DNA of 64,000 nt from contig CACHGK010000001.1 in NCBI GenBank assembly GCA_902579395.1, positions 64,504-128,503 on the forward strand. Reading direction: 5' to 3'. The stretch comes from an uncultured Alphaproteobacteria bacterium (GTDB lineage Bacteria; Pseudomonadota; Alphaproteobacteria; Methylaequorales; Methylaequoraceae). The translations under genes and the position numbers were made by a program. Below, one piece after another: positions 4,900-29,890 of the stretch (positions are counted from its first letter, which is position 1; every line of letters begins with the position of its first letter). Under the pieces are notes generated by a model, which saw only the letters and a program-made list of their open reading frames with translations, was not told the DNA's origin and did not search any database.

Positions 4900-6264
4900 T
4901 TAAATCCAAATATCAGATGAGCAATCACCGCCGGGATATCTTGTTTCATGAGCTCGAGAAGGACCATTTGGTTCTTTTCCAAAATCTATTAAAAAATTAT
5001 CTCTAATTTTCATACCACCTTTTTCATTGTCACAATCAACAATTAGCATCATGCCTCCAGATTCGTTCATTTTTGGATAGAATTGATTATCCCAGGATGA
5101 AAATAAAGATGTAGTTACATACAATCTTTTACCATCAAGTGAGAGTTGAATCATTTGAGGAGCACCGTTAACTTCTCTTCCGTTAACATTATTAGCTTTT
5201 CCTAATAATCCTCCTATCCAAACTTGTCCTGTAAGTTTAGGTTGTGAAGGATTAGAAATATCATACTGCCTTAGATCACCGTGAAGCCAATTAGAAAAAT
5301 AAAGGTATTTATCATCCATTGATACTAAAATATCTGTGATTAAGCCAGGCATTGGGACTGGGAGAATTTTGTTATCTATTGACTCTACATCTATAATTTT
5401 TTCTATTCTATAATCATTATCTGAGGTTTTATACCAGTGGAATATATTTGAGCTTAATGCGGCTCCAACGAAGCCATGACTTGAATCAGGATTGTGATGA
5501 AATCTTACCTCTAACGGAATCAAACCCTCATCACCAAGGTCTACAGATTTAATTATCTTTTTTTCTTTGAAATTCCAAAAATGAATGTGCCTTCCGTAAT
5601 TATTTTTTGAAACGTCCTCTAAGTTAAAACCAGGTATAAATGTTTTTGGAGCACCCCATTCTGTGGATACCATAATATTATGCCTTGGTTGATACCAAAA
5701 ATCATAACTAAAATTCATCCCTTTTATATCTTTCTCCCATCTTCCTACAATTTCAAAATCCTTGTTTAGATGAAGAAATCCTCCAGGAGCATTACCATTG
5801 GCGTCACCAAGCATTGAAACGATTATTTCTGAGCCTAGACAATGGACAGTATGAGGAGAAGAAAGATTTGTTTTCTGCTTTATTTCTTCTCCAGAAATTG
5901 TTTTATATAAAGTTGGTTTTTTGGAATCAGTTGCCGTGTCTACTATATAAAAATTACTACTTTGTAATCCAGGTATGATTAAATATTTTCTTTGCATTTT
6001 TTCATCATCATGACATGATGAACAAGCATTCCAACCCATATGATGCAACTCATCTCCATAATTTCCAAGTTCAGTTCTACATATAACTTTGCCATAAGTT
6101 GGACTTTCAATATCAACATCAATAGTAGCAAGATAGTCCGGTTTTTTAATATTACTTCCAGTATAGATGCATACTGTGTAAACTACTTTCTCCTTAGGCG
6201 CTTTTAATGCTTCTTGTGGAGAGGCATAGCCTGGTCCTGAACAACATTTAACTTCATCTAACAT
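4900..6264 (-). CDS. selenium-binding protein 56 family / methanethiol oxidase homologue, no signal peptide
   Basis: 454-aa ORF that aligns end to end, from memory, with eukaryotic SELENBP1. Shared segments include N-terminal CCSGPGYASPQEALK, DELHHMGWNACSSC, YDFWYQPRHNIMVSTEW, MPGLITDILVSMDDKYLYFSNWLHGDLRQYDIS, PQMIQLSLDGKRLYVTTSL and C-terminal RYPGGDCSSDIWI. Confidence 0.85.
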   Translation of the reverse strand: MLDEVKCCSGPGYASPQEALKAPKEKVVYTVCIYTGSNIKKPDYLATIDVDIESPTYGKVICRTELGNYGDELHHMGWNACSSCHDDEKMQRKYLIIPGLQSSNFYIVDTATDSKKPTLYKTISGEEIKQKTNLSSPHTVHCLGSEIIVSMLGDANGNAPGGFLHLNKDFEIVGRWEKDIKGMNFSYDFWYQPRHNIMVSTEWGAPKTFIPGFNLEDVSKNNYGRHIHFWNFKEKKIIKSVDLGDEGLIPLEVRFHHNPDSSHGFVGAALSSNIFHWYKTSDNDYRIEKIIDVESIDNKILPVPMPGLITDILVSMDDKYLYFSNWLHGDLRQYDISNPSQPKLTGQVWIGGLLGKANNVNGREVNGAPQMIQLSLDGKRLYVTTSLFSSWDNQFYPKMNESGGMMLIVDCDNEKGGMKIRDNFLIDFGKEPNGPSRAHETRYPGGDCSSDIWI

Positions 6265-6344: not shown

Positions 6345-6725
6345 TTAAAAGATTTTTGTTGCCAAAAAAGCAAAGAAAAAACCAATTAAATAAAGTATCG
6401 ATGAAATATACAGCATTGTTAAATTTATATATCTAAGTTTCGAGCAAAGATTTGCCAATTTAGCATCAGATGGACATGGAGATTTTCTTTCCTTCAAAAA
6501 TAGTATAATTGAAAAAAAAATCATAAATCCAGCTGTTATAAAAATCTCAATTTTATATTTAGATATAATTGTTATCCAGGGAAATACAGAGATTATACTA
6601 GCTAATGCTGCGCCCATTCCAAGTGTTATAAGTAATGCAGGTAAGGCACAGCAAATCAATGTACTAAAGCTTGCAAACAAACTTAGTATAGGTGTAAAAA
6701 ATTGTTTAAATAAGCTTCTATTCAC
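6345..6725 (-). CDS. MerT-topology small metal-transport membrane protein (putative)
   Basis: 126 aa with three predicted TM helices. TM1 carries the vicinal cysteines LICCALPALL, comparable to the MerT CCLGPL motif. The loop before TM3 carries a second Cys pair (SPCPSDAKLANLC). It overlaps the upstream HMA gene by 8 nt. Confidence 0.4.
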   Translation of the reverse strand: MNRSLFKQFFTPILSLFASFSTLICCALPALLITLGMGAALASIISVFPWITIISKYKIEIFITAGFMIFFSIILFLKERKSPCPSDAKLANLCSKLRYINLTMLYISSILYLIGFFFAFLATKIF

Positions 6726-7023
6726 GGTTTATCTCAACTATATCATAACCAGAATCATTTATTATTTGTTTTATGGTTTGATTATCCAAGTTTTTATTTT
6801 TCTTTAATCTCACCGTTATTAACATTTTTTCTAAATTTACATCAATATCTAAAACTGATTCTCTTTTCATAAAAAGTTTTTCAATTGATCTTGCGCAAAA
6901 ATCACAAACCAACCCATTCACTGATATAGTAAAAAAATCTTTAGTATTTTCCTTATTCTCTGCATTTGTCAGATTACTCATAAGAATCAATATAGAAAAA
7001 GTTATATAAAAAAATAATTTCAT
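6718..7023 (-). CDS. periplasmic heavy-metal-associated (HMA, MerP/CopZ-like) protein
   Basis: 101 aa with an N-terminal signal peptide (ILILMSNLTNA-EN). An HMA fold signature follows: ISVNGLVCDFCARSIEKLF (CxxC) ... DVNLEKMLITVRL ... DSGYDIVEI. Confidence 0.7.
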   Translation of the reverse strand: MKLFFYITFSILILMSNLTNAENKENTKDFFTISVNGLVCDFCARSIEKLFMKRESVLDIDVNLEKMLITVRLKKNKNLDNQTIKQIINDSGYDIVEINRE

Positions 7024-7034
7024 TTTTATTCTCC

Positions 7035-7682
7035 CTAAAATCTTTTTATAAAATTAAAAGTAAAGTTATTATTGTTGCTAAGCCCTGTCTCTAACAAATA
7101 ATCGTCTTTAAACAATCTCAGCAAAGGTGTAAAAACCATTTTGTCTTGAACATTGGGCATATGTTGAATTTCTAACATAAACCAAGTATGCAAATCCCCA
7201 TATTTTCCTATATAAGGAGAGTATCCTACTCGAGCTTTTTGAACAAAAAATTTATCAATCGAAGAGTTATAATTTATTCTATTTTCATAACTTGTGAAAT
7301 ACCGCCTATCTTCCCAGTCAAAAGACAAACCAGAAAAAAAATTTGGCTCAATTTTTTTTTCAAAGTTTTTATAATCACTAAAGGCAATACCTAAACCATT
7401 TTTAAGATAAAAATTTGTCTGAGATTTCGACGTGTTTATTCGTTTTATGAGATAATTTAACTGTGTGCCATGAAACTGCCACTCTTTTTTTCTCCAAAAC
7501 TCACTTTTATAACCGATAGAATATTTTATTGAAGGAGAAAAATGAAAATGGAAACTATGTTTATTAAAATCATTCATTTGCATAATTGTCCAACCTCCTG
7601 CATAAGAAATTGGTCTAGCATGTGATTTGGTTATAAAAATCAACACTGATAAAAAAAAACAGCGAAGTATAATTTTATTCAT
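7035..7682 (-). CDS. putative small outer-membrane beta-barrel protein
   Basis: 215 aa with a signal peptide (FITKSHA-RP). It has alternating aromatic/polar strands rich in Y/F/W/N and a C-terminal ...FNFIKRF ending in Phe, as in OMP barrels. I recognise no family. Confidence 0.35.
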   Translation of the reverse strand: MNKIILRCFFLSVLIFITKSHARPISYAGGWTIMQMNDFNKHSFHFHFSPSIKYSIGYKSEFWRKKEWQFHGTQLNYLIKRINTSKSQTNFYLKNGLGIAFSDYKNFEKKIEPNFFSGLSFDWEDRRYFTSYENRINYNSSIDKFFVQKARVGYSPYIGKYGDLHTWFMLEIQHMPNVQDKMVFTPLLRLFKDDYLLETGLSNNNNFTFNFIKRF

Positions 7683-7739
7683 TACATTCTCCTTCTAAAT
7701 ATGGGCTGAAAAGAAAGTTATCTTCTTTTCTTTAAATTT

Positions 7740-8081
7740 TCAGGATAAAAATCTTGGTGGTGGATCCTCTGTTTTGAGGTTTAATGAATTAAATTTTTCG
7801 AGAAAGTTATTCAAATGGGGTGTAAAATTTACAGAAATTAAAAATTTAATATATTCAAGTTTTTGTATTTGAATTAAATGACAATCACATTTAAAGCAAA
7901 ATTGTAATGTTTTTTTTTCTGTAGAATGACTGTGACAATTCTCATCGTTCTTGACTTTTTTATATAAATGATCTTTTAATTCGTGTTTGCTAATACAAAT
8001 GGAGATGGATTTGCTTAAAACATTTGAAGTCATCAATCCACTGATAAGCAAAAAAAATAAAAAAAATTTATAAAATTTCAC
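7740..8081 (-). CDS. secreted Cys/His-rich small protein, unknown function
   Basis: 113 aa with a signal peptide and clustered potential metal ligands (ENCHSHS, CFKCDCH). It is the first gene of the minus-strand arm, divergent from the TonB-dependent receptor. Confidence 0.3.
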   Translation of the reverse strand: MKFYKFFLFFLLISGLMTSNVLSKSISICISKHELKDHLYKKVKNDENCHSHSTEKKTLQFCFKCDCHLIQIQKLEYIKFLISVNFTPHLNNFLEKFNSLNLKTEDPPPRFLS

Positions 8082-8218: not shown

Positions 8219-8248
8219 TTGACAAAATAATAAGTGTTATAATATAAC
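8219..8248 (+). promoter_or_regulatory. sigma70-type promoter candidate for the TonB-dependent receptor operon
   Basis: TTGACA lies at 8219-8224. An 18-nt spacer leads to TATAAC (8243-8248). A consensus TATAAT at 8238-8243 would have only a 13-nt spacer. AGGAAA, a possible RBS, lies at 8272-8277 before the ATG at 8282. Confidence 0.45.
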
Positions 8249-8281: not shown

Positions 8282-10246
8282 ATGTTCAAAAAATTTATCC
8301 CCTTTTTAATCTTGCTATTTGCAGCAAATTTAAATGCTGAAAATATAGAATCTATTTTTGTTGCACCTGATGTATTTATTACATCAAAAATTAAGCCAAG
8401 TACTGAGTATGAAAGTGACAGAGGCAATATTTTATTTGATGGTCATGAAATTGAAAAAAAAAGAAAATACTCTATTGGTGATATGTTAAAAGATTTACCT
8501 GGTATTTCTTCAAAAGGTCTTGGTAACGCTTCGCGACCTATAATACGAGGTATGACTAATTCGAGAGTTAAAATTCTTCAGAATAGTAGTGGTACTACAG
8601 ATGTATCTGAATTTGGTGAGGATCACATAGTAGGTTATGATCCAATGCTGATTGACAAAATTGAGATTATTAAAGGTCCTGGAACATTATTGTATGGTAA
8701 TAATGGATTTGCAGGTGTAGTTAATATAATTAATCCTCTAGTAGCTGTTGACAAACCTGTAACTGACGAAAATGTGGAGGCAAATTTTGGTTACACTACA
8801 TCCGGCGGTGAACTAAAAGGAAGCATTAAAGCTGCTCAATCAATTGAAAACTTTATTGTTAGACTTAATGCAAGTGGACTAAGTTCAGGTCCTTACGATT
8901 TAGCAAATACCTCAAATAAACAACCAAATTCTTCAAAATTTATGGCATCTGGTGGTGTTGGTTTAACATATAATGATGGTGACAATTATATTGGATTTTC
9001 TTTTGATAAACTTGAAGCTGTTTATGGAAATCCTGGTCCTGAAGGTGAGGAAAACATGACCTCATTAAATCCTACTAAGAATTCATTTAATTTTCAATCG
9101 TCGTTTTCACTTAATACTGCATATTTTAGTAAGTTTAACTTGCAAGGTGCAGTATCCGAATATAATCATTCTGAGAGAACTGGTGACGGAAATAATCACA
9201 ATATTAATTTCTTTAGTGATTTATATGAAATTAAAACTTCTCTTAATCACAAATCAATCATTGATGTTAATAGCGAAGGATTAATTGGGTTCCATTTTCA
9301 AAATTATGATCAAGGTGCCTTAGGGCAAGAGGAAAGTCATTTAGTTCATACAAGAACATCTAGTTTTGCATTATTCGCTCTTGAAAGCTTTAATTTTGAT
9401 TTATTTGACTTGGATATCGGAGGTCGTGTGGAATCAGTTAATTTAAAAAATACTAGTATGGAAAAAGGGTTTTTTCCTGGTGCATTTTCTTCAACAATTA
9501 AAAAAGAAATATTTAATAATAACTCTGTTTTTGGTGGTTTTGACTTTACTCAGAGAGCACCTAATGCAGTTGAATTATTTGCTAATGGTCCACATCATGC
9601 ACAAGAACAATTTGAAATCGGGGATAGCAACATGGATGTCGAAACCTCTTATAATTTTTCTTTAGGGTATAGCTATAATAATGGCTTAGATACCTTTAAA
9701 ATTGAAACATATTATAATTATATTGACGATTTTATTGCGGCAGACAGAGATGGTACTACTACATTAGTTGAGGGTGAAGACATGAACGATGTTAATTTTA
9801 CTCAATATAATGCAATCTTCACTGGTTTAGAGGTTGGTGGTCAGTATGCTTTTGCCAAAGTTAATGACTTTGATTTCATTTCTAATGTTATGATTGACTT
9901 TCTAAAAGGATACCGAACTTCAAATGATAAAGCTTTATCATTAATACCTCAAACAAAGATGAACTTTGGTATAAAAGCCATAAATGAAAATTGGGATGCA
10001 AATCTAAATTACTTCCATTATTTTGATAAGGAATTTATAGGGCCATTTCAAACTAGAACTGGGGGGCACTCAAGATTGGATTTTGATTTAACACGAGACT
10101 TTAACTATTCTGATCTCTCTGGTCATTTAATGTTTACGGCTTCTAATTTACTTGATGTTGTTGGAAGAAATCATTTAGAGGCGAAAAAAGCAAATGTCCA
10201 ATTGCCTGGAAGAAGTTTTATGTTTATGCTTAAATTATTTTACTAA
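8282..10246 (+). CDS. TonB-dependent outer-membrane receptor (metal-type)
   Basis: 654 aa with a signal peptide (LLFAANLNA-EN). Plug-domain motifs are present (DLPGISSKGLGNASRPIIRGM, IEIIKGPGTLLYGNNGFAGVVNI). The barrel motif RAPNAVELFANGPHHAQEQFEIGD and a C-terminal aromatic residue (...LKLFY) are also present. Confidence 0.85.
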   Translation: MFKKFIPFLILLFAANLNAENIESIFVAPDVFITSKIKPSTEYESDRGNILFDGHEIEKKRKYSIGDMLKDLPGISSKGLGNASRPIIRGMTNSRVKILQNSSGTTDVSEFGEDHIVGYDPMLIDKIEIIKGPGTLLYGNNGFAGVVNIINPLVAVDKPVTDENVEANFGYTTSGGELKGSIKAAQSIENFIVRLNASGLSSGPYDLANTSNKQPNSSKFMASGGVGLTYNDGDNYIGFSFDKLEAVYGNPGPEGEENMTSLNPTKNSFNFQSSFSLNTAYFSKFNLQGAVSEYNHSERTGDGNNHNINFFSDLYEIKTSLNHKSIIDVNSEGLIGFHFQNYDQGALGQEESHLVHTRTSSFALFALESFNFDLFDLDIGGRVESVNLKNTSMEKGFFPGAFSSTIKKEIFNNNSVFGGFDFTQRAPNAVELFANGPHHAQEQFEIGDSNMDVETSYNFSLGYSYNNGLDTFKIETYYNYIDDFIAADRDGTTTLVEGEDMNDVNFTQYNAIFTGLEVGGQYAFAKVNDFDFISNVMIDFLKGYRTSNDKALSLIPQTKMNFGIKAINENWDANLNYFHYFDKEFIGPFQTRTGGHSRLDFDLTRDFNYSDLSGHLMFTASNLLDVVGRNHLEAKKANVQLPGRSFMFMLKLFY

Positions 10247-10249
10247 TAA

Positions 10250-10618
10250 ATGTTTAAATATTACTCATCATACGCATTGGTTTTCAGTAATTTTACCCAT
10301 CTTTTATGTTGTGGTTTGCCCACTATCATCGGTTTAAGTTCATTGCTAACCAATTTTATGTTTATTGAAGTGTTCATTTCCAATATAGAGGCATTCGAAG
10401 CTTTTGAAATTTATCTTTTTGTAATATCCTCTTCAATTCTATTAATGCTTGTTTTACAAGAAATTTACAACAGAAAAATTAAATGTTCTGATGACATAGA
10501 TTGTTGTGAAGCTAAAGAATGTGAGTCCACAAAAAAAAAAATAAAGATCAATATTATTTTTTCCTTAGTGCTATATATATTTAACAGTACATTGTTTCTA
10601 TATGAGATTATCACTTAA
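10250..10618 (+). CDS. MerT-topology small membrane protein, paralogue-like of 6345..6725
   Basis: 122 aa. TM1 carries HLLCCGLPTIIG, a second TM follows, then a Cys-rich loop (KCSDDIDCCEAKECES) and a third TM. It starts 3 nt after the receptor stop. Confidence 0.35.
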   Translation: MFKYYSSYALVFSNFTHLLCCGLPTIIGLSSLLTNFMFIEVFISNIEAFEAFEIYLFVISSSILLMLVLQEIYNRKIKCSDDIDCCEAKECESTKKKIKINIIFSLVLYIFNSTLFLYEIIT

Positions 10619-10620
10619 AA

Positions 10621-11265
10621 ATGATTTATTATTTTAACGAAAGTGATTCTTTTGATATTTTTAAAAAAAGAGACGAACAAATAGGAGTTCTAAACAGAAA
10701 GTCTCCTAAAAACTGCATGAATTTTTTTAAAAAATTACTTAAAACACCTTTTTCTATATCTGGAATTGTAGGTCAAAAAAATACAAGAATGGACATCGAG
10801 AGACATCTTAAACATAATATTTCCAAAAGCATTCAATATGATTCATTTTATGATAACTGGTTAAATGATATGAGTGAGATCTGTAAAATGTTCTGTATTT
10901 TTCAAAAGCAAAAGAAAGTTAGTTTTTGGCTTGGATCTGATAGAGGTTGTAAGCGTTATCATGTCGATATGGTTCCTTTTAGATTATTAGTTACTTATTC
11001 TGGTCAGGGCACTGAAATTTTACCCAATGAAGCTGCTGATCGTAATGCATTTATTCAGGGTGAATCTAATGAAAAAATTGTGAGGGATAAATCTAAATTA
11101 ATGCATTTAAGTGATTGGGATATTTCTATATTTCGAGGCGGAAAGAACGGGATACTTCATCGGACACCAAATTCGGCTTTAGAAGGCAAATCATCTGTTC
11201 TAATGCGTCTAGATCACGAAGATTACCTTACTGAGATTTATAAAATAAATGGAGCTTATGGCTAA
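10621..11265 (+). CDS. cytoplasmic protein with HxD...H motif, DUF1826-like (tentative)
   Basis: 214 aa with no signal peptide. The segment CKRYHVDMVPFRLLVTYSGQGTEIL ... GILHRTP resembles, from memory, the DUF1826 family, which is often found in Zur regulons. HVD...H could form a metal facial triad. It starts 2 nt after the previous gene. Confidence 0.35.
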   Translation: MIYYFNESDSFDIFKKRDEQIGVLNRKSPKNCMNFFKKLLKTPFSISGIVGQKNTRMDIERHLKHNISKSIQYDSFYDNWLNDMSEICKMFCIFQKQKKVSFWLGSDRGCKRYHVDMVPFRLLVTYSGQGTEILPNEAADRNAFIQGESNEKIVRDKSKLMHLSDWDISIFRGGKNGILHRTPNSALEGKSSVLMRLDHEDYLTEIYKINGAYG

Positions 11266-11291: not shown

Positions 11292-11879
11292 TTATTCTCC
11301 AATAAATTTATGGTTTTTGAATCTTCCTATTTGAACATCTCCATTTTCAAAAGTAAATTTACCGTTACCATTAAATAAATTATTTCTAAATTCACCTTCG
11401 TATTTATCACCATTAGCATATGTAAAAACCCCCTTTCCGTTTATAAAACCATCCTTAAAATCTCCAGTATAAATATCCCCAGAGGAAAAGGTCTGTGTTC
11501 CTTTACCATGAGGTAGATCATTTACAAAATCTCCCTCATAATGTTCTCCGTCGGAAAAAATAGATTTCCCCCTACCATGATATAAACCATTTCTAAACTC
11601 TCCCTCATACCTGTCACCATTTGAAAAAGTAAATATACCTTGACCATTTTGGAGTCCATCTAAGAATTCCCCTTCATATATGTTTCCATTTTGATAAAGA
11701 TAGGTTCCATTGCCGTTGTATTTATAATTTTTTATTTCACCGACGTATTTTTCCCCATTCTTATGGACTATTGTTCCAAAACATAGTGTATCAAAATTAC
11801 CATTACATGGTGGAAGAGAGTATGAATGACTTGAAATAAATAAAAATATTGTAAGAGCCAACTTATAGAATTTGTACAT
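11292..11879 (-). CDS. secreted MORN-repeat protein
   Basis: 195 aa with a signal peptide. About seven tandem 23-aa units of the form YxGEfxnGxxnGxGxxxfxnGd follow, for example YEGEFRNGLYHGRGKSIFSDGEH. Confidence 0.8.
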   Translation of the reverse strand: MYKFYKLALTIFLFISSHSYSLPPCNGNFDTLCFGTIVHKNGEKYVGEIKNYKYNGNGTYLYQNGNIYEGEFLDGLQNGQGIFTFSNGDRYEGEFRNGLYHGRGKSIFSDGEHYEGDFVNDLPHGKGTQTFSSGDIYTGDFKDGFINGKGVFTYANGDKYEGEFRNNLFNGNGKFTFENGDVQIGRFKNHKFIGE

Positions 11880-25302: not shown

Positions 25303-25518
25303 TTTTTTTTTCCTATATATACCTGATTTGACCTTACCCGCTATACTTATCAGAAAATCAGCCACTTTATCGTCTGTATTTAAAGTTGATAATTCTCTTA
25401 TTGTTTCGTCAATAAAGGCTCCTATAGCTATGTATGGGTTTATTTTCTTTTTTCTGCATTCTTCTCTTGCTTTTAAAACAATTGCTGATGCTAATTTTTT
25501 CTGTTCATTTTCATTCAT
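25294..25518 (-). CDS. hypothetical 74-aa protein co-transcribed with umuDC
   Basis: Its start overlaps the umuC stop by 8 nt on the same strand. It is predicted helical and has a basic tail (YRKKKSG). I recognise no family. Confidence 0.35.
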   Translation of the reverse strand: MNENEQKKLASAIVLKAREECRKKKINPYIAIGAFIDETIRELSTLNTDDKVADFLISIAGKVKSGIYRKKKSG

Positions 25519-26842
25519 TTTTAACCTTAACTTTTGGTATATCGTCCCAACTCGTTGTATAACAAGGCGAACGATATTCTGATTTCATTTGCCAGCTAAT
25601 TTCTTCATTACTATTTTTTTCTTTAGAAAAGAAGTTTTTATCACAGTCCGAAGATAACTTAATTTTACCATACCCGAATCTATTATTAATGATATCAATT
25701 AACTTCATAATTTTCACTCCATTTTTTTTAGATATATCATTATTTAACTTTTCATCTATTAATGACATTTGTATTGATTCTTTTTTACAAAAGTCTGACA
25801 AGATAACACCAACCTTACTGTATATAAATGATTCCTTGTAAATCTCCTTTAATAATTTATCAGACACTTTCCAGATTAATCTCAAGTCAATTGTTGGTTC
25901 AATTAGTGTATACGTTTTGCTATTCTTGTATAAATTACTTTCATATCTAGATGTTTTCAGGAATATTGTTATAGTTCTACAAAATAAATTACTCATTCTC
26001 ATTTTAGATGCCGCCTTTTGAACATAAACAATTAACGCACTTCTCAAACTATCATAATAACGCAATTTTCTTCCAAATGATCTTGAAACACAAATTGACT
26101 TTTTATCAGGTAAAACATCTTCAATTTGATTACACAATACACCTCTTAGTTCAAGTACTGTTCTTTCTAATATAACACCTTTTTTTTTTCTAATAAAACT
26201 CTCGTTACATTCTTTTAAATTAAAGGCATTTTTTACATTATTGTCCTTAAGAAAAATTGAAAGTTTCTTACCTACTCCCCAGACATCTTCAACATCAGTA
26301 GTTTTCAGCACATATTCTAGATCTTCTTTTCTTCTGATTTCTAGCACATTTGAGCTATGAAAATCTAATTTACTATATATATTTTTCTTTTTAATTACTC
26401 TGTTAGTAATTTTCGCCAAAGTTTTTGTTTTTGCTATACCAATACTTACCGGAATACCTGTCCATTTTAATATCTTATTGGCCAAATCAACACATTCTTC
26501 TTCCTTGTTATTTAACTTATCTAAACTAAAAAATGCCTCATCTATTGAATATATTTCAACTTTATCGAAGTTATTCTTCAGAATATTCATTATTCTATTG
26601 GAAATATCTCCATAAACAGAATAATTTGATGAACAAACCACAACTTTATTATTAGTTAATTTATCTTTAATCTTAAAGAGTGGCTCACCCATTTTTATCC
26701 CAATATTTTTTGCTTCGTCAGAACGAGAGATAATACAACCGTCGTTATTTGAAAGAACAACAACCGGTTTCCCGACTAGTTTAGGATTGAATAATCTCTC
26801 ACAAGAAACATAAAAATTATTACAATCTAAAAGCGCAATCAT
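25511..26842 (-). CDS. umuC: Y-family translesion DNA polymerase (Pol V catalytic subunit)
   Basis: 443 aa with MIALLDCNNFYVSCERLFNP, SNNDGCIISRS and YSIDEAF motifs of UmuC/DinB-type polymerases. It lies 4 nt downstream of umuD. Confidence 0.85.
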   Translation of the reverse strand: MIALLDCNNFYVSCERLFNPKLVGKPVVVLSNNDGCIISRSDEAKNIGIKMGEPLFKIKDKLTNNKVVVCSSNYSVYGDISNRIMNILKNNFDKVEIYSIDEAFFSLDKLNNKEEECVDLANKILKWTGIPVSIGIAKTKTLAKITNRVIKKKNIYSKLDFHSSNVLEIRRKEDLEYVLKTTDVEDVWGVGKKLSIFLKDNNVKNAFNLKECNESFIRKKKGVILERTVLELRGVLCNQIEDVLPDKKSICVSRSFGRKLRYYDSLRSALIVYVQKAASKMRMSNLFCRTITIFLKTSRYESNLYKNSKTYTLIEPTIDLRLIWKVSDKLLKEIYKESFIYSKVGVILSDFCKKESIQMSLIDEKLNNDISKKNGVKIMKLIDIINNRFGYGKIKLSSDCDKNFFSKEKNSNEEISWQMKSEYRSPCYTTSWDDIPKVKVKNE

Positions 26843-26846
26843 AAAA

Positions 26847-27233
26847 TTACTTTAAGCTATGTAAAACGTAGGTAACAACACCCCATATCATAGTATCTGT
26901 ATTAGAATTGAGTTTAATGTTTGGATAATTATTATTTTCAGACTTTAGGTAATAATTTTTTAATTTGTCTTTTATTATTTTTTTTATAACTAGTTCACCG
27001 TCTATAGAGGCCAAGATTATAGATTGTCTTACTGGAGTCAAAGATCTGTCAACAATTAGTATATCATTGTCAAATATACCTACGTTAATCATAGAGTCAC
27101 CTGATACTCTTACAAAGAATGAAGACTCTTTATTCTTAATAAGATATTTATTTAAATCTAGCTGCTCTTCTACATAATTTTCAGCGGGTGATGGGAAACC
27201 TGCTGCAGCACTAACTAATTTTATTTTTTTCAC
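26847..27233 (-). CDS. umuD: S24 peptidase, translesion synthesis accessory protein UmuD
   Basis: 128 aa with a GTG start and an Ala-Gly cleavage region (SAAAGFPSPA). The catalytic Ser is in VSGDSM and the catalytic Lys in LVIKKI. Confidence 0.85.
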   Translation of the reverse strand: MKKIKLVSAAAGFPSPAENYVEEQLDLNKYLIKNKESSFFVRVSGDSMINVGIFDNDILIVDRSLTPVRQSIILASIDGELVIKKIIKDKLKNYYLKSENNNYPNIKLNSNTDTMIWGVVTYVLHSLK

Positions 27234-27253
27234 TCTAATTTTTCCTCATAATA

Positions 27254-27281
27254 ATTATAAGAACAAAAGGAGAACTTTCAA
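27254..27281 (-). promoter_or_regulatory. umuDC promoter
   Basis: The minus strand reads TTGAAA (27281-27276), a 16-nt spacer, then TATAAT (27259-27254). GAGGAAAAA, a likely RBS, and the GTG start at 27233 follow. The -35 element overlaps the stop codon of the upstream ligase gene. Confidence 0.65.
27261..27275 (-). promoter_or_regulatory. alphaproteobacterial-type LexA (SOS) box
   Basis: The minus strand reads GTTC-TCCTTTT-GTTC, which is GAAC-N7-GAAC on the plus strand. This is an exact match to the GTTC-N7-GTTC direct repeat. It sits in the spacer between the -35 and -10 elements of the umuD promoter. Confidence 0.7.
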
Positions 27282-28873
27282 GAATTAATTAATTTTTTTA
27301 AATCCTCTAATATGGAAACATCTGATATAGGTTTATCCCATCTAATTCTTGAAAATCTTGGAAATCTTAATGCAACTCCAGACTTATGTCTGGAAGAAAC
27401 ATTGATATTATCAAAAGAAATTTCTATGACTAGACCAGGCTTAACAGATCTTACAGGCCCGAATCTTTCTGTTGTATTATTTCTAACCCAAAGATCAAGT
27501 TTTTTTAATTCTTCATTGGAATATCCAGAATAAGCCTTACCTACAGGCACAAGTTTTTCAAACTTATTATTAATCCAACAACCAAAAGTGAAATCTGAAT
27601 AAAAAGAGGATCGTTTACCGTGACCTCTTTGAGCATACATAATAATAAAATCAAAAGAATAAGGATCTCTTTTCCATTTGTACCAACCATTCAAAACTCT
27701 ACCTTTTTGGTAGATACTTTCTTTTTTTTTTACTACGACGCCTTCGACATGGTTATTAAGTGTGTTCTCTTTAATATTTTTCAAATGACCCCAACTAGAA
27801 AAATTAATAAGTTTAGATAATGAAATGTTATTAAGTTTTTTTAGTCTAATGAAATCATTAAGATAATTTCTTCTATCTAAAAAAGGTAATGATCTACAAT
27901 CCAAATCATTAAAAAAAAGAATATCATAAGCAATAAAATGAATAGGAAACTTATCAATTAATTTTTTAGAAACCTTTTTCCTACCAATTCTTTTTTGTAA
28001 ATTATTAAAAGAAAGAATATCTTCTCCTTTTTTAATAACTAATTCACCATCGACAACATAATAACCACTATCAGAAATATTTATATCAGGAAAAGATTGA
28101 GTTATATCCTCCCCACCTCTAGAGAAGATTTTTCCTATTTTCGAAAAAATTATTTGAGCCCTAATACCGTCCCATTTATATTCCGCAGTAAATTTGTTTG
28201 AATTTAGTTTTATAAATTCTTCATACTTAAAATTATTTGCTAACATAAAAGAATTGAATAATTGTTTCCTGTCAATATATCCTGGCAAGTTCTGTCCATC
28301 CAACCATTCAAAGAAGTCTTTAAAATGATATTGAAATCCATGAAAATATTCTTCAATTTCATTTGATGTTCTTGATCCATAAATAGTCAGTGATTCTTTT
28401 ATTATACCATAAGACACCCCTACTCTAAGCCCACCCGTTAAAATCTTTAAAATACAATATCTTTGATCTTCAGATGAACTATCGAGATTAAATTTAATCT
28501 TTTTTTTTAATTTTTCTTTATCACTACATTCTGATATTGATCTCATAAATTGACTTAAATTTATATTCGATCTTATATTTTCATTTGACTCCCATAACAA
28601 TGAAATTGTTTCTGCCAAGTCACCAACATAGTCATAAGAATATTTAAATAAAGTATTACCAACTTTCTCGGTAATCATTTCCTTTAAATCTTTGCTACTA
28701 AGAAATTTTCTTTCAAACCTATTTAAAAGTATTGATAATGCCCAAGCTTTATCTTCCAACCTGGATTTTTTAAAATATTTATAAATAAGTATAATTTTTT
28801 TTTTTTTGGAAGAAGTTAATAATAAATCATTTAATAATTGTGAAAAATTATTCATTCTCATCCTCAAATCCAA
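27278..28873 (-). CDS. ATP-dependent DNA ligase (ligase-associated DNA damage response cluster)
   Basis: 531 aa with adenylation motif I (AEYKWDGIRAQI, the KxDG motif) and the motifs VVDGELV, EGVVVKK and WYKWKRD, plus an OB-fold C-terminus. It overlaps the upstream exonuclease gene by 26 nt. Confidence 0.85.
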   Translation of the reverse strand: MDLRMRMNNFSQLLNDLLLTSSKKKKIILIYKYFKKSRLEDKAWALSILLNRFERKFLSSKDLKEMITEKVGNTLFKYSYDYVGDLAETISLLWESNENIRSNINLSQFMRSISECSDKEKLKKKIKFNLDSSSEDQRYCILKILTGGLRVGVSYGIIKESLTIYGSRTSNEIEEYFHGFQYHFKDFFEWLDGQNLPGYIDRKQLFNSFMLANNFKYEEFIKLNSNKFTAEYKWDGIRAQIIFSKIGKIFSRGGEDITQSFPDINISDSGYYVVDGELVIKKGEDILSFNNLQKRIGRKKVSKKLIDKFPIHFIAYDILFFNDLDCRSLPFLDRRNYLNDFIRLKKLNNISLSKLINFSSWGHLKNIKENTLNNHVEGVVVKKKESIYQKGRVLNGWYKWKRDPYSFDFIIMYAQRGHGKRSSFYSDFTFGCWINNKFEKLVPVGKAYSGYSNEELKKLDLWVRNNTTERFGPVRSVKPGLVIEISFDNINVSSRHKSGVALRFPRFSRIRWDKPISDVSILEDLKKLINS

Positions 28874-29861
28874 TTAAATTTAATGCACTACTTTGATAAT
28901 TTAAACTTTTAAGATAGTGAACTAACGCCTCTTCTCTTCCATGAGTAACTAATACTTCACTTGGATTTACATCATTTACAGTTTGGAGAATTCCGTTCCA
29001 ATCAACGTGATCTGAGATTATAATGGGTAGTTCAATATTTTTTTGTTTAACTCTTTGTTTAATTCTCATCCATCCGGAGACATAACCTTTAATTGTATTT
29101 TTAAATTTTTGAGACCATTTATCATTTAATGATGAAGGAGGACAAAGTATTAAATTACTTATTAATTCGGATGGCGATTTGTCAGAAACTTTTTGAACCC
29201 TTCCCAAACTAATACCAACCTCTGAGTAATATTCTGAGATTTTCATTAAAGCACCATGCAAGTATATTGTTTTTTCATATCCAAGATTCCTAAGTAAAGT
29301 AATAAGTCTTTGACACTTACCCAGTGCATAAACTCCAATTAAATGTGTAGATTTATCATTATTAGTTAGCGAGGTTATTAATTTTTTCGCTTCTTCTTTA
29401 TCATCTGGATGATTAAAAATTGGTAATCCAAATGTTGCTTCTGTAATAAAAGTATTACATTTTATAGGTTCATACGTTTTACAAGTTAAATCAAATGTTC
29501 TTTTATAATCTCCACTTATCAGTAATTTATAACCTTTATATTCAATTAAGAATTGAACACTTCCGAGTATATGTCCAGCAGGCAAAATACGAATTTTTAA
29601 ATTGTTTAAACTTACTGTTTCATCATAACGTATTGACTGGTGGGTAGAACAATAGTTGTTACCATACCTTAATTTCATTAGCTCTAAAGTTTCTTTTGAT
29701 GATAGAATTAGTTTATTATTTGGCCTTGCATGATCGGTGTGGGCGTGTGTTATTAAGGCACGGTGTACAGGTGCAATTGGATCAATAAAAAAATCTCCAG
29801 GAATGCAATATAAGCCTTGTTTTTTTTTTACTAACCAATTTATTTTTGTTTCTGTCATCAT
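28848..29861 (-). CDS. metallo-beta-lactamase-fold (beta-CASP-like) ligase-associated exonuclease
   Basis: 337 aa with ITHAHTDHA (HxHxDH), ATFG and a later THG motif. It sits directly upstream of the ligase. Confidence 0.75.
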   Translation of the reverse strand: MMTETKINWLVKKKQGLYCIPGDFFIDPIAPVHRALITHAHTDHARPNNKLILSSKETLELMKLRYGNNYCSTHQSIRYDETVSLNNLKIRILPAGHILGSVQFLIEYKGYKLLISGDYKRTFDLTCKTYEPIKCNTFITEATFGLPIFNHPDDKEEAKKLITSLTNNDKSTHLIGVYALGKCQRLITLLRNLGYEKTIYLHGALMKISEYYSEVGISLGRVQKVSDKSPSELISNLILCPPSSLNDKWSQKFKNTIKGYVSGWMRIKQRVKQKNIELPIIISDHVDWNGILQTVNDVNPSEVLVTHGREEALVHYLKSLNYQSSALNLIGFEDENE

Positions 29862-29890
29862 TATATATTATCTAAATAATTCTTATTTCA

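Follow-up and report, generated by a model that had tools for sequence, protein, structure and literature searches.

ZnuD, the outer-membrane zinc receptor of the host-associated pathogen Neisseria meningitidis, is encoded by a single gene and carries a His/Asp-rich extracellular capture loop. The ligands of its buried high-affinity zinc site are D99, H100, E340 and H499 (PMC4557270). In Caulobacter crescentus, TonB-dependent receptors are the main zinc scavengers, accompanied by an uncharacterised putative inner-membrane transporter, and the Caulobacter Zur operators, which have the form GTTAT-N3-ATAAC and overlap the -10 region, have been validated by EMSA and reporter assays (PMC4176598). 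The locus described here shares this operator type with the Caulobacter crescentus Zur regulon (znuK/L/M, znuGHI, zrpW) but differs from it in gene content: ZrpW is a six-TM protein of a different family, paired with a COG0523 protein, and no MerT-like or DUF1826 gene is reported in that regulon. We read the locus as a Zur-repressed zinc-acquisition operon of an uncultured, low-GC marine alphaproteobacterium, in which a small membrane protein serves as a MerT-type zinc carrier. Taken as a whole, this reading has in our view an even chance of being right. Its parts differ in strength: the three genes very probably form a Zur-controlled zinc-acquisition operon, and the proposal that the second gene product is itself the inner-membrane zinc carrier is tentative, falling slightly short of an even chance.

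The operon was analysed within a 64-kb stretch of DNA, hereafter the window (Table 1). Its three ORFs are tightly packed, with junctions reading TAA-TAA-ATG between genes 1 and 2 (3-nt gap) and TAA-AA-ATG between genes 2 and 3 (2-nt gap). The palindrome GTTATAATATAAC lies 33 nt before the ATG of gene 1, downstream of a TTGACA hexamer. It has no other exact copy in the window, and shuffled sequence gives 0.01 as the expected number. TTGACA recurs 11-13 nt ahead of the Zur box in most orthologous promoters, and a generic promoter scan was uninformative in this AT-rich DNA. A Zur box with at most one mismatch is present upstream of the receptor gene in 20/20 related loci covering that region, and the flanks are divergent. 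The box has the same GTTAT-N3-ATAAC architecture and the same overlap with the -10 region as the Caulobacter operators (PMC4176598). Judged from this perfect and conserved operator over the -10 region, expression of the receptor operon is predicted to be Zur-dependent. The trio is also kept together elsewhere, with all three genes present in 25/25 related loci and adjacent in 24/25; gene 2 lies directly downstream of the receptor gene in all 25, including the one locus (L024) from which the DUF1826 gene has moved away. An earlier note on this DNA had proposed a three-ORF operon behind a Zur-box promoter, and the short gaps, the uniqueness of the box in the window and its recurrence in all 20 orthologous promoters bear this out.

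Table 1 Features of the zinc-acquisition locus and its surroundings, in positions of the window.
Feature	Position	Strand	Length	Basis
Divergent neighbour cluster, linked to the operon	6345..8081	-		ORFs, Pfam/NCBIfam
Probable -35 hexamer, TTGACA	8219..8224	+		read from sequence
Zur operator, perfect palindrome GTTATAATATAAC, overlapping the -10 region	8236..8248	no strand		
Gene 1, receptor ORF; ZnuD-family TonB-dependent outer-membrane zinc receptor	8282..10246	+	654 aa	Pfam, NCBIfam, PDB search, ligand alignment
Gene 2, small membrane protein ORF; inner-membrane protein with three predicted TM helices	10250..10618	+	122 aa	family alignments, hydropathy
Gene 3, DUF1826 ORF; cytoplasmic DUF1826 protein	10621..11265	+	214 aa	PF08856, AlphaFold2, Foldseek

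Gene 1 contains the Plug (PF07715, E=1.8e-15) and TonB_dep_Rec_b-barrel (PF00593, E=1.7e-20) domains, both above their gathering scores. Its top NCBIfam match is ZnuD at about 210 bits, with the next family at 84 bits; the exact score of 210.6 is below the ZnuD cut-off of 950 bits, which belongs to a model of the 'exception' type, tailored to close orthologues of ZnuD. In the PDB search, Neisseria meningitidis ZnuD (4rdr) was found with E=1.5e-35, followed by OprC (4e-9) and BtuB (5e-7), which places ZnuD 26 orders of magnitude in E-value ahead of the next solved relative. Residues D114, H115, E298 and H438 of gene 1 align with D99, H100, E340 and H499 of ZnuD, identical at all four positions of the buried site, and are the predicted zinc ligands. 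All 17 orthologues examined keep the DH and E motifs, and a strict pattern for the motif of the fourth ligand matched in 10 of them. These observations indicate that the receptor takes up a metal, zinc, rather than a vitamin or a carbohydrate, as had been proposed before. None of the outcomes that the earlier note had named as speaking against it, such as a trio that is not conserved or a non-metal receptor, was found.

Gene 1 shares with ZnuD (4rdr, 4rdt, 4rvw) membership of the family with a Plug and a 22-strand barrel, and both are under Zur-box control. It differs from ZnuD in being shorter (654 against about 750 aa), with shorter loops, and in having no His-rich stretch, with at most two His in any 15 consecutive residues over the whole 654 aa. 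Unlike znuD, it is co-transcribed with two more genes, and it comes from a free-living marine oligotroph instead of a host-associated pathogen.

Gene 2 carries the motif H17-x2-C20-C21-x2-P24 (HxxCCxxP) in TM1, with the CC pair at residues 20-21. Loop 1, predicted to be periplasmic, is acidic and includes E50 and E53, and loop 2, predicted to be cytoplasmic, is K/R-rich and contains four Cys in the arrangement C79-x5-C85-C86-x4-C91. There are eight K/R in loop 2, whereas loop 1 has none and contains four D/E. According to hydropathy and the positive-inside rule, the loop between TM2 and TM3 should thus face the cytoplasm. The AlphaFold2 model of gene 2 was poor (pLDDT 71.6, pTM 0.33), so the three-helix fold and the topology are taken from hydropathy alone. 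Counting against a zinc carrier, the soft Cys-rich sites of gene 2 would also suit Cu(I) or Cd(II).

Comparison with mercury transporters suggests that gene 2 is remotely related to MerT, at a distance that misses the curated HMM cut-offs widely. The NCBIfam MerT model matched with E=0.005 and 16.9 bits, far under its 150-bit cut-off, and there was no match to Pfam MerT (PF02411) at E<=0.1. Among 83 members of the gene-2 family, the sub-threshold HMM matches were to MerTP in 23 cases and to MerT (NF010314) in five, all far below the cut-offs. When the family was aligned to authentic MerT with hhalign, the probability was 93.1% (E=3e-7, 92 columns), a value that comes from a MerT profile of only four sequences and that TM composition may inflate; the score was 43.6, compared with 26 for reversed MerT and at most 17 for column-shuffled MerT. 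This alignment places both Cys motifs in register. C20-C21-G-L-P24 of gene 2 corresponds to CCLGP, CCVIP and CCAGP in MerT proteins of mer operons, and C79-x5-C85 has the spacing of the MerT C-x5-C pair. The small protein had previously been described as MerT-like from the sequence of the window, and the CCxxP motif, the C-x5-C spacing and the predicted topology support this description, as does, more tentatively, the profile-profile comparison.

The proteins of the MerT, MerTP and MerF group fall in the same size class as gene 2 (about 116-128 aa) and have three TM helices, as is predicted for gene 2. MerT also has the CCxxP Cys pair in TM1 and the C-x5-C pair in the loop between TM2 and TM3. 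Two features of the gene-2 family are absent from MerT, namely an acidic or His-rich loop on the periplasmic side and a fully conserved His at the third position ahead of the CC pair. There are additional loop Cys as well, and half of the members end in a His-rich C-terminal tail. The genomic setting differs as well. No mer genes (merR, merP, merA) were found in the window or in related loci, and gene 2, unlike the genes of mer operons, is under predicted Zur control with zinc genes as its neighbours (the ZnuD-type receptor and DUF1826).

The gene-2 family contains at least 218 unnamed small proteins, with more than 200 homologues in other lineages, and has no Pfam or NCBIfam model. Across 83 diverse members, H17, C20, C21 and P24 never vary. 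His-rich C-terminal tails are present in 110/218 members, HxxxHxxE ahead of TM2 in 128/218, and three or more loop Cys in 188/218, and some members of the clade that occurs in the trio are without any loop Cys. The context of the wider family was sampled in 73 distinct, unrelated metagenome loci (350 kb). This sample contains 21 Zur boxes with at most one mismatch, and 19 of them are located no more than 130 nt ahead of a family gene, in a region that makes up 2.7% of the sequence; when two mismatches are allowed, 43 boxes are found upstream of family genes against 4.7 expected. The zur gene itself adjoins a family gene in four loci (L107, L114, L116 and L117). Because of these upstream boxes and adjacent zur genes, the family is, as far as genomic context tells, linked to zinc independently of the receptor, with a recognisable Zur box in only 25-37% of the wider-family genes. 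Unannotated yet tied to Zur, the gene-2 family is a candidate new family of zinc importers.

Of the readings of gene 2, a MerT-type zinc carrier has the most support but is as yet a proposal. We infer zinc as the ion of gene 2, and likewise the direction and mechanism of its transfer and the part played by DUF1826. Under zinc scarcity, Zur would come off its operator over the -10 region, and genes 1 to 3 would be co-transcribed. The ZnuD-type receptor would bind Zn(II) at its buried Asp/His/Glu/His site and pass it to the periplasm, where the acidic periplasmic loop of gene 2 would take it and hand it to the His17/Cys20/Cys21 site in TM1. From this site Zn(II) would move to the Cys cluster of the cytoplasmic loop, in the same kind of relay as that of MerT with Hg(II); the invariant His that is added to the MerT-like site would suit a borderline metal. 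DUF1826, with a predicted 2-His-1-carboxylate motif on an oxygenase-type fold, would be co-induced and would most likely act as a zinc-independent (iron-type) enzyme of the zinc-starvation response, its use as a cytoplasmic metal acceptor being the less likely option.

Among the about 60 ORFs scanned in the window, which is part of a larger genome, no member of the TonB, ExbB, ExbD, ZnuABC or ZIP families was found. The earlier note had suggested that the MerT-like protein stands in place of an ABC or ZIP importer, and this agrees with their absence from the window but not with the wider set of related loci. In 10/25 of these, a Zrg-like set lies 2-6 kb from the trio. Its permease is of the FtsX type and has a His-rich periplasmic insert, and its other members are an ABC ATPase and DUF3299 (ZrgE). 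Five of these loci were checked for Zur boxes, and all five have them upstream of this system; in three loci, the zur gene lies close by as well. The MerT-like carrier could thus be one of two routes or an auxiliary one, and in those genomes transport across the inner membrane can be explained without it. By comparison with the Zur-regulated ABC importers of the ZrgABCDE and PA4063-4066 type, the Zrg-like set is the conventional inner-membrane candidate beside the trio. Importers of this type are multi-subunit and ATP-driven, whereas gene 2 encodes a single three-helix polypeptide of unrelated sequence.

The Zrg-like system and its Zur boxes are also an argument for the strongest alternative, in which the operon does acquire zinc but gene 2 is an accessory protein. 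It would then be a membrane-anchored zinc relay or buffer to a conventional importer, which could be the Zrg-like ABC system or ZnuABC or ZupT elsewhere in the genome, or else a tethered metallation chaperone for envelope proteins. A three-helix protein of 122 aa is small for an autonomous pathway, and the loop Cys are dispensable in some members, both of which fit an accessory role. However, most of the wider-family genes, with their 25-37% of recognisable Zur boxes, are stand-alone and have no transporter partner within 4-7 kb, which is not expected of an obligate accessory factor. Neither the window nor the loci that match it best in synteny contain the Zrg-like ABC system, and MerT and MerF, which are of similar size or smaller, are recognised as carriers by themselves. 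We consider an accessory role unlikely, though it deserves more weight than any of the further alternatives below.

The Pfam scan assigned gene 3 to DUF1826 (PF08856) with E=7.6e-23 and 81.9 bits, the cut-off being 22 bits, and the match spans profile positions 13-202 of 202. Nothing besides DUF1826, and no match to a 2OG-oxygenase HMM, was found in the Pfam scan, and no sequence match was found in the PDB, even with a profile-based search. The residues H114-x-D116...H180 (HxD...H) are invariant in 45 homologues. The AlphaFold2 model is confident (pLDDT 91.6, pTM 0.88), and all 49 Foldseek matches in the PDB at E<=1e-3 belong to the Fe(II)/2OG-oxygenase fold class, with TM-scores of only 0.27-0.46. 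R181 and R196 are conserved and are candidate binders of the 2OG C5-carboxylate. The modelled fold looks like a double-stranded beta-helix of the Fe(II)/2OG-oxygenase-like kind, so DUF1826 would more likely be an enzyme than a simple metal acceptor. An oxygenase-like fold with HxD...H is not mentioned in three papers naming the DUF1826 family.

The DUF1826 gene has a Zur box of its own where it is detached from the trio (L024) or stands alone (L033-L035), and DUF1826 has been reported as a member of the Zur regulon in Pseudomonas and Francisella. The third gene is thus, as had been suggested, a DUF1826 gene of a kind known from Zur regulons, and Pseudomonas PA5534 is indeed, as the earlier note indicated, a DUF1826 protein in a zinc-responsive cluster. 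Gene 3 shares Pfam membership and the Zur regulon with Pseudomonas aeruginosa PA5534 and Francisella novicida FTN_1758, the Zur box being present here and in relatives. In Pseudomonas the DUF1826 gene adjoins a COG0523 GTPase gene (zigA), whereas in the window it follows the receptor and the MerT-like protein and no COG0523 gene lies close to it.

The divergent neighbour cluster encodes a secreted His/Cys protein of 113 aa, a probable small outer-membrane barrel of 215 aa, a secreted HMA (CopZ/MerP-like) protein and a second MerT-like protein of 126 aa. At least part of this cluster lies beside the trio in 18/25 related loci, in either orientation, and no Zur box of the cluster was found where it is not divergent from the trio. 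By hhalign (98.7%, E=2.5e-16), the 126-aa paralogue belongs to a family homologous to that of gene 2, and the HMA protein is nearest to Cu(I) domains among solved relatives. The cluster is linked to the trio, and we do not claim it as part of the operon.

This CopZ-like neighbour of a paralogue, whose closest solved relatives bind Cu(I), raises a second alternative, that the cargo is something other than free Zn(II): Cu(I), Cd(II), Co(II), Ni(II), or a metal-chelate whose ligand is processed by DUF1826 in the cytoplasm. Such a cargo would be compatible with the preference of Cys-rich sites for soft metals, with the relationship of the ZnuD fold to that of haem receptors, and with the enzyme-like appearance of DUF1826. 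Against this, the Zur operator is canonical here and across the small-protein family, and the receptor retains the exact four-residue zinc site of ZnuD. A chelate could hardly pass through a three-helix protein, and no zincophore biosynthesis genes are nearby. We regard another cargo as improbable.

Still less probable is that gene 2, in place of the zinc carrier we favour, is a membrane thiol-redox component, a CcdA/DsbD-like electron shuttle for DUF1826 or for envelope proteins in zinc starvation. Vicinal Cys in a TM helix together with a Cys-rich loop would suit such a function, and one locus of the wider family (L028) sits among DsbA, ScsC, SCO1 and DsbD genes. However, no similarity to CcdA/DsbD or DsbB was found in Pfam and NCBIfam, the recurring sub-threshold matches are to MerT and MerTP only, and the invariant His by the CC pair, the HxxxHxxE motif and the His-rich tails indicate metal binding. 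Finally, a chance open frame or decaying spacer, which might be considered as gene 2 has no database annotation and no Pfam match and ORFs are frequent in an AT-rich genome, can be dismissed, being already refuted by the conservation data. The ORF keeps a length of 120-124 codons in 25/25 related loci at 37-68% amino acid identity with invariant motifs, and it has the homologues in other lineages described above. With dN/dS of 0.09-0.27 in close pairs, gene 2 is a real gene under purifying selection.

The operon and its regulation by Zur, the zinc receptor, and DUF1826 are all well established, and each is of a known kind. The new element is the small protein encoded by gene 2, which belongs to a sizeable, unmodelled, Zur-linked family of MerT-like architecture and is hard-wired between a ZnuD receptor (gene 1) and a DUF1826 protein (gene 3). 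ORF calling placed the three genes exactly where the earlier note had located them. The junctions are tight, with a gap of 3 nt between genes 1 and 2 (...TAC TAA TAA ATG...) and of 2 nt between genes 2 and 3 (...ACT TAA AA ATG...). The Zur operator lies downstream of a TTGACA (8219-8224) and overlaps the -10 region. An exact match to GTTATAWTATAAC occurs once in the 64 kb, at the operator site, compared with 0.01 in dinucleotide-preserving shuffles. As the GC content of the window is 24-37% throughout, the exactness and position of the box carry weight. Matches with two mismatches show no excess over chance in the window, and a generic promoter and terminator scan was uninformative in DNA of 29% GC (38 promoter-like sites compared with 35 expected, and 0 terminators). 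The same operator architecture, including the overlap with the -10 element, is found at znuK and znuL, Zur-repressed receptor genes of Caulobacter crescentus, where the GTTAT-N3-ATAAC operator was validated by EMSA and reporter assays (PMC4176598).

Features of the operon, its surroundings, and the related loci (coordinates refer to the window unless a locus is named)
Feature	Position	Strand	Remarks
Gene 1, ZnuD-family receptor	8282-10246	+	654 aa
Gene 2, small MerT-like protein	10250-10618	+	122 aa
Gene 3, DUF1826	10621-11265	+	214 aa
Zur operator GTTATAATATAAC	8236-8248		perfect 13-bp palindrome, 33 nt 5' of first ATG
Second four-gene metal cluster	6345-8081	-	divergent from Zur operon
Paralogous MerT-like protein	6345-6725	-	126 aa; CCALP, C-x9-C; 1.5 kb upstream of operon
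SBP56-family protein	4900-6264	-	E=7e-214
Secreted MORN-repeat protein	11292-11879	-	6 repeats, E=1.6e-44
umuD/umuC-like pair	25511-27233	-	Peptidase_S24 and impB/mucB/samB polymerase
DNA ligase to Lhr-type helicase region	27278-32215		beside umuD/umuC-like pair
Zrg-like system and zur beside trio	L022 5315-8520		system also in L001, L004-L006, L013, L014, L016, L017, L024
Stand-alone DUF1826	L033 7001-7633		

Gene 1 encodes Plug and TonB-dependent barrel domains (Pfam), and ZnuD is its top NCBIfam model, with 210 bits compared with 84 for the next family, far below the strict ZnuD cut-off of 950. Among solved structures, the best match is Neisseria meningitidis ZnuD (E=1.5e-35), followed by OprC (4e-9) and BtuB (5e-7). 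The receptor groups with metal receptors, ZnuD being its best solved relative; the clustering with non-metal receptors that, according to the earlier note, would refute its reading was not seen. In a HMMER alignment, the zinc ligands of ZnuD (D99, H100, E340, and H499, PMC4557270) fall opposite D114, H115, E298, and H438 of gene 1, once a shift of 14 residues between the numbering of the deposited chain and the published one is allowed for. The FGEDH and YNHxE motifs are kept in all 17 orthologues examined, and GPHH, searched as a strict pattern, was found in 10 of them. Compared with ZnuD, the protein is ~100 residues shorter, and it has no His-rich stretch. By sequence, gene 1 is a ZnuD-family receptor rather than a strict ZnuD orthologue.

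Homologues of gene 2 with 47-83% identity come from marine metagenomes, single-cell genomes, and metagenome-assembled genomes (MAGs), in records labelled 'Alphaproteobacteria bacterium', 'Rickettsiales bacterium', or 'Rhodobacterales'. In tblastn searches with the window proteins, the receptor gene, the small gene, and the DUF1826 gene are adjacent and in the same order in 24 of the 25 related loci. In the exception (L024), DUF1826 is shifted 3 kb upstream and has its own perfect Zur box 5 nt before the start codon, and the small gene is still directly 3' of the receptor gene. A Zur box with at most one mismatch lies 5' of the receptor gene in all 20 related loci that cover this region, usually after TTGACA; three related loci have two boxes, and the sequence around the boxes is unconserved. 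The trio and its operator thus recur outside the window, and the lack of joint conservation that the earlier note said would refute its reading was not seen. We note that the stretch 8390-10340 of the window is 96-99% identical in DNA to 2780-4730 of L011, a related single-cell genome. This high identity does not extend beyond the receptor gene and the initial ~90 nt of gene 2; it falls sharply to 61-79% upstream of the tract and 67-72% downstream, and is 66-69% in flanking genes. Between diverged lineages, the zinc receptor thus seems to have undergone recent recombination or a gene-specific sweep.

The ORF of gene 2 keeps a length of 120-124 codons in all related loci and has a dN/dS of 0.09-0.27 in close pairs, and it is a real gene. 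Its hydropathy profile contains three hydrophobic segments (about residues 9-34, 54-72, and 101-119). Loop 1 contains no Lys or Arg and four Asp or Glu, and loop 2, between TM2 and TM3, contains eight Lys or Arg. According to the positive-inside rule, the N-terminus is predicted to be inside, loop 1 periplasmic, and loop 2 cytoplasmic, the same N-in arrangement as in the accepted topology of MerT. An AlphaFold2 model from a 23-sequence alignment contains long helices only (pLDDT 71.6, pTM 0.33) and is too poor for a fold search. Invariant positions in the clade alignment are H17, C20, C21, P24, and E53, with near-invariance at C79, C85, and C86; in an 83-sequence family alignment, the invariant residues are H17, C20, C21, and P24 only.

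Searching 1.84 billion representative proteins with a profile gave 116 family members at E<=1e-3, and a second, word-indexed search with a broader profile gave 129 further clusters. More than 200 distinct members were recovered, chiefly from alphaproteobacterial MAGs and varied environmental metagenomes, and the marine trio genes belong to metagenome clusters of hundreds of member sequences. Members are 105-190 aa long, have no Pfam domain, and are 'hypothetical' wherever named. Pfam searches with distant members gave no family, with scattered sub-threshold noise apart from MerT, and a PDB sequence search with the family profile gave nothing meaningful. Among 218 full-length members, 188 have at least three Cys in loop 2 (most commonly C-x4-C-x4-C within the motif DC..GC.HEPC.PKK), 128 have HxxxHxxE immediately N-terminal to TM2, and 110 carry three or more His in a C-terminal tail predicted to be periplasmic. 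The potential ligands would thus lie in three layers (periplasmic, intramembrane, and cytoplasmic), the pattern expected of a metal relay. Three marine-clade members (P0029, P0040, and P0041) have lost all loop-2 Cys and kept H17, C20, C21, P24, and E53, which makes the TM1 site the conserved core and the loop cluster dispensable. In MerT, the TM1 Cys pair is essential and the loop pair only contributory.

We compared the family with authentic MerT proteins encoded by annotated, plasmid-borne mer operons of Serratia, Pseudomonas, Vibrio, and Bradyrhizobium. In TM1, the CCxxP spacing is common to both (CCLGP, CCVIP, and CCAGP in MerT, CCGLP in gene 2), as is C-x5-C in loop 2 of MerT (C-KPGEV-C) and gene 2 (C79-SDDID-C85). 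When the 83-member profile was aligned by hhalign with only four MerT sequences, the probability was 93% (E=3e-7, 92 columns), with both Cys motifs in register. The score was 43.6, compared with 26 for the reversed MerT alignment and 11 ± 1.8 (maximum 17) for 60 column-shuffled MerT controls. In NCBIfam scans of the 83 members singly, MerTP (23 members) and MerT (5 members) were the sole recurrent functionally meaningful matches, all far below cut-off. The spacing, the hhalign result, and these sub-threshold matches argue that the family is a remote relative or a close structural analogue of MerT, outside the curated MerT family. Unlike MerT, the family has an invariant His that precedes the CC pair by one helical turn, an acidic or His-rich periplasmic loop, and extra loop Cys and His tails, and its genomic context is wholly different. 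No paper linking a MerT-like protein to zinc was found in our literature search.

Our main new result is that the small-protein family is tied to Zur independently of the receptor. Distant members stand alone among unrelated housekeeping genes, and no receptor or DUF1826 gene was found near the small gene in 7 stand-alone contexts and 80 metagenome loci. The trio is thus specific to the marine clade, but the link to Zur extends beyond it. Three of the first seven stand-alone contexts have a one-mismatch Zur box 21-57 nt 5' of the start. The 80 metagenome loci, collected with a narrower profile (alignment A4), form a wider sample of 73 distinct loci with 38-67% GC. Within their 350 kb, GTTAT-N3-ATAAC has 21 matches with at most one mismatch, and 19 of these, in 18 loci, are at most 130 nt upstream of the family gene, a region that makes up 2.7% of the sequence. 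With at most two mismatches, there are 43 upstream matches, in 27 of the 73 loci, compared with 4.7 expected. From these counts, we estimate that at least a quarter to a third of the family, in diverse bacteria, is under a recognisable Zur operator. Moreover, zur itself adjoins the family gene, divergent or directly downstream, in four loci (L107, L114, L116, and L117). The operators are close to the start and, where a -35 box is visible (e.g. L042), after it. This placement indicates repression and hence expression under zinc limitation, which favours a role in zinc acquisition or mobilisation and argues against efflux.

The operon as a whole very probably serves zinc acquisition, and the inner-membrane step is where the readings differ. 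No TonB, ExbB, ExbD, ZnuABC, or ZIP gene was found among the ~60 ORFs scanned across the 64-kb window. The absence of an ABC or ZIP importer holds for the window, but the non-canonical route proposed in the earlier note is weakened by the related loci: in 10 of the 25, a Zrg-like ABC system (ABC ATPase, FtsX-type permease, and DUF3299 protein) lies 2-6 kb from the trio. In L022, the system is preceded by a perfect Zur box and has zur (141 aa) beside it; the permease contains a His/Glu/Asp-rich repeat insert of ~70 residues (HEDHEEHEEH...) and is followed by the DUF3299 (ZrgE-like) protein. One-mismatch Zur boxes precede the system in L004, L005, L013, and L014. In the ZrgABCDE zinc system of Vibrio, the DUF3299 protein is ZrgE (PMC9817125). 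The lineage therefore has a conventional candidate for the inner-membrane step, with which the small protein coexists. This is the ground for the main rival explanation, that the small protein is an accessory zinc handler beside a Zrg-like ABC importer, which we consider rather unlikely. The Zrg-like system is absent from the window. The poor model of the small protein and the loss of loop cysteines in a few clade members also weaken the reading of a non-canonical route. The likeliest mechanism, which we favour with slightly less than even confidence, is that the small protein is a MerT-style carrier, by which Zn(II) would be relayed across the inner membrane. By analogy with ZupT beside ZnuABC, it may be a parallel low-cost route, or it may be an accessory relay.

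Zinc import across the bacterial inner membrane is ascribed to only a few families, namely ZnuABC, ZupT/ZIP, Zrg-type ABC systems, some P-type ATPases, and MntH-like carriers. A Zur-controlled small MerT-type carrier would add a mechanistically distinct importer class that needs no ATP, and the small protein is a concrete candidate for it. The wider proposal, that the HxxCCxxP family is a new Zur-controlled class of inner-membrane zinc importer derived from the MerT superfamily and coupled to ZnuD in a low-GC marine clade, is possible and we hold it only tentatively. If it is true, the ZnuD receptor and the small protein would form a minimal two-protein zinc route across both membranes without an ABC transporter, which would explain the zinc supply of genome-streamlined marine bacteria at picomolar free concentrations, and with DUF1826 an iron/2OG-type enzyme induced through Zur would for the first time be coupled to a route of this kind. 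Parts of the ocean are co-limited by the micronutrient zinc, and how abundant streamlined heterotrophs take it up therefore matters for trace-metal cycling in the sea.

Gene 3 matches PF08856 over nearly its full length (E=7.6e-23). The three papers found to mention DUF1826 all assign it to zinc regulons: PA5534 adjoins zigA in Pseudomonas aeruginosa, FTN_1758 is among the Zur-dependent genes of Francisella (Moreau et al. 2018), and the family is shown beside Zur-regulated COG0523 genes by Haas et al. (2009). H114, D116, and H180 do not vary among 45 aligned homologues, and neither do several Arg, Gly, Trp, and other residues. Sequence searches of solved structures with the single sequence and a profile gave nothing meaningful. 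The AlphaFold2 model is confident (pLDDT 91.6, pTM 0.88), and all 49 Foldseek matches in the PDB at E<=1e-3 are in the Fe(II)/2-oxoglutarate-oxygenase fold class, including ethylene-forming enzyme, HrmJ, PolD, FtmOx1, DAOCS, and FIH, with modest TM-scores of 0.27-0.46. Based on the fold matches and the invariant H/D/H residues, the description that fits DUF1826 best is that of a predicted double-stranded-beta-helix protein whose 2-His-1-carboxylate site is intact. The model suggests that it is an enzyme, perhaps an iron-dependent one induced under zinc scarcity. A Zur-regulon protein unexplained since 2009 is thus assigned a testable fold and metal site and becomes approachable by experiment. 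In L033-L035, from a different marine genome of low GC (26-27%), a DUF1826 gene stands alone, 40 nt downstream of a perfect GTTATAATATAAC box and with neither a receptor gene nor a MerT-like gene in the vicinity; DUF1826 is thus Zur-linked by itself. In the window, the MORN-repeat gene is convergent with DUF1826, and it is kept beside the trio in most related loci.

The second metal cluster contains the 126-aa MerT-like protein, a clear paralogue of the gene 2 family by hhalign (98.7% probability, E=2.5e-16). Its other members are a 113-aa secreted His/Cys protein, a 215-aa protein ending in Phe and without a Pfam or PDB match, which is probably a small outer-membrane barrel, and a secreted HMA/CopZ-like protein with a CDFC motif, whose nearest solved relatives are Cu(I) domains. 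In 18 of the 25 related loci, at least part of the cluster is found with the trio, its orientation flipping between divergent and convergent, and no Zur box of its own was found when it is convergent. The cluster may serve to carry a soft metal such as Cu(I) from the outer membrane to the cytoplasm. Directly downstream lies the SBP56-family gene (selenium-binding / methanethiol-oxidase type); we rejected it as a conserved copper tie of the cluster, as the adjacency is seen in the window only and in none of the 25 related loci.

Elsewhere in the window, the umuD/umuC-like pair is found next to genes for an ATP-dependent DNA ligase, a metallo-beta-lactamase-fold protein, and an Lhr-type helicase with a phosphoesterase. 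Judging from these gene assignments, functions in DNA-damage tolerance and repair are packed together at 25511-32215, within a region that is streamlined otherwise.
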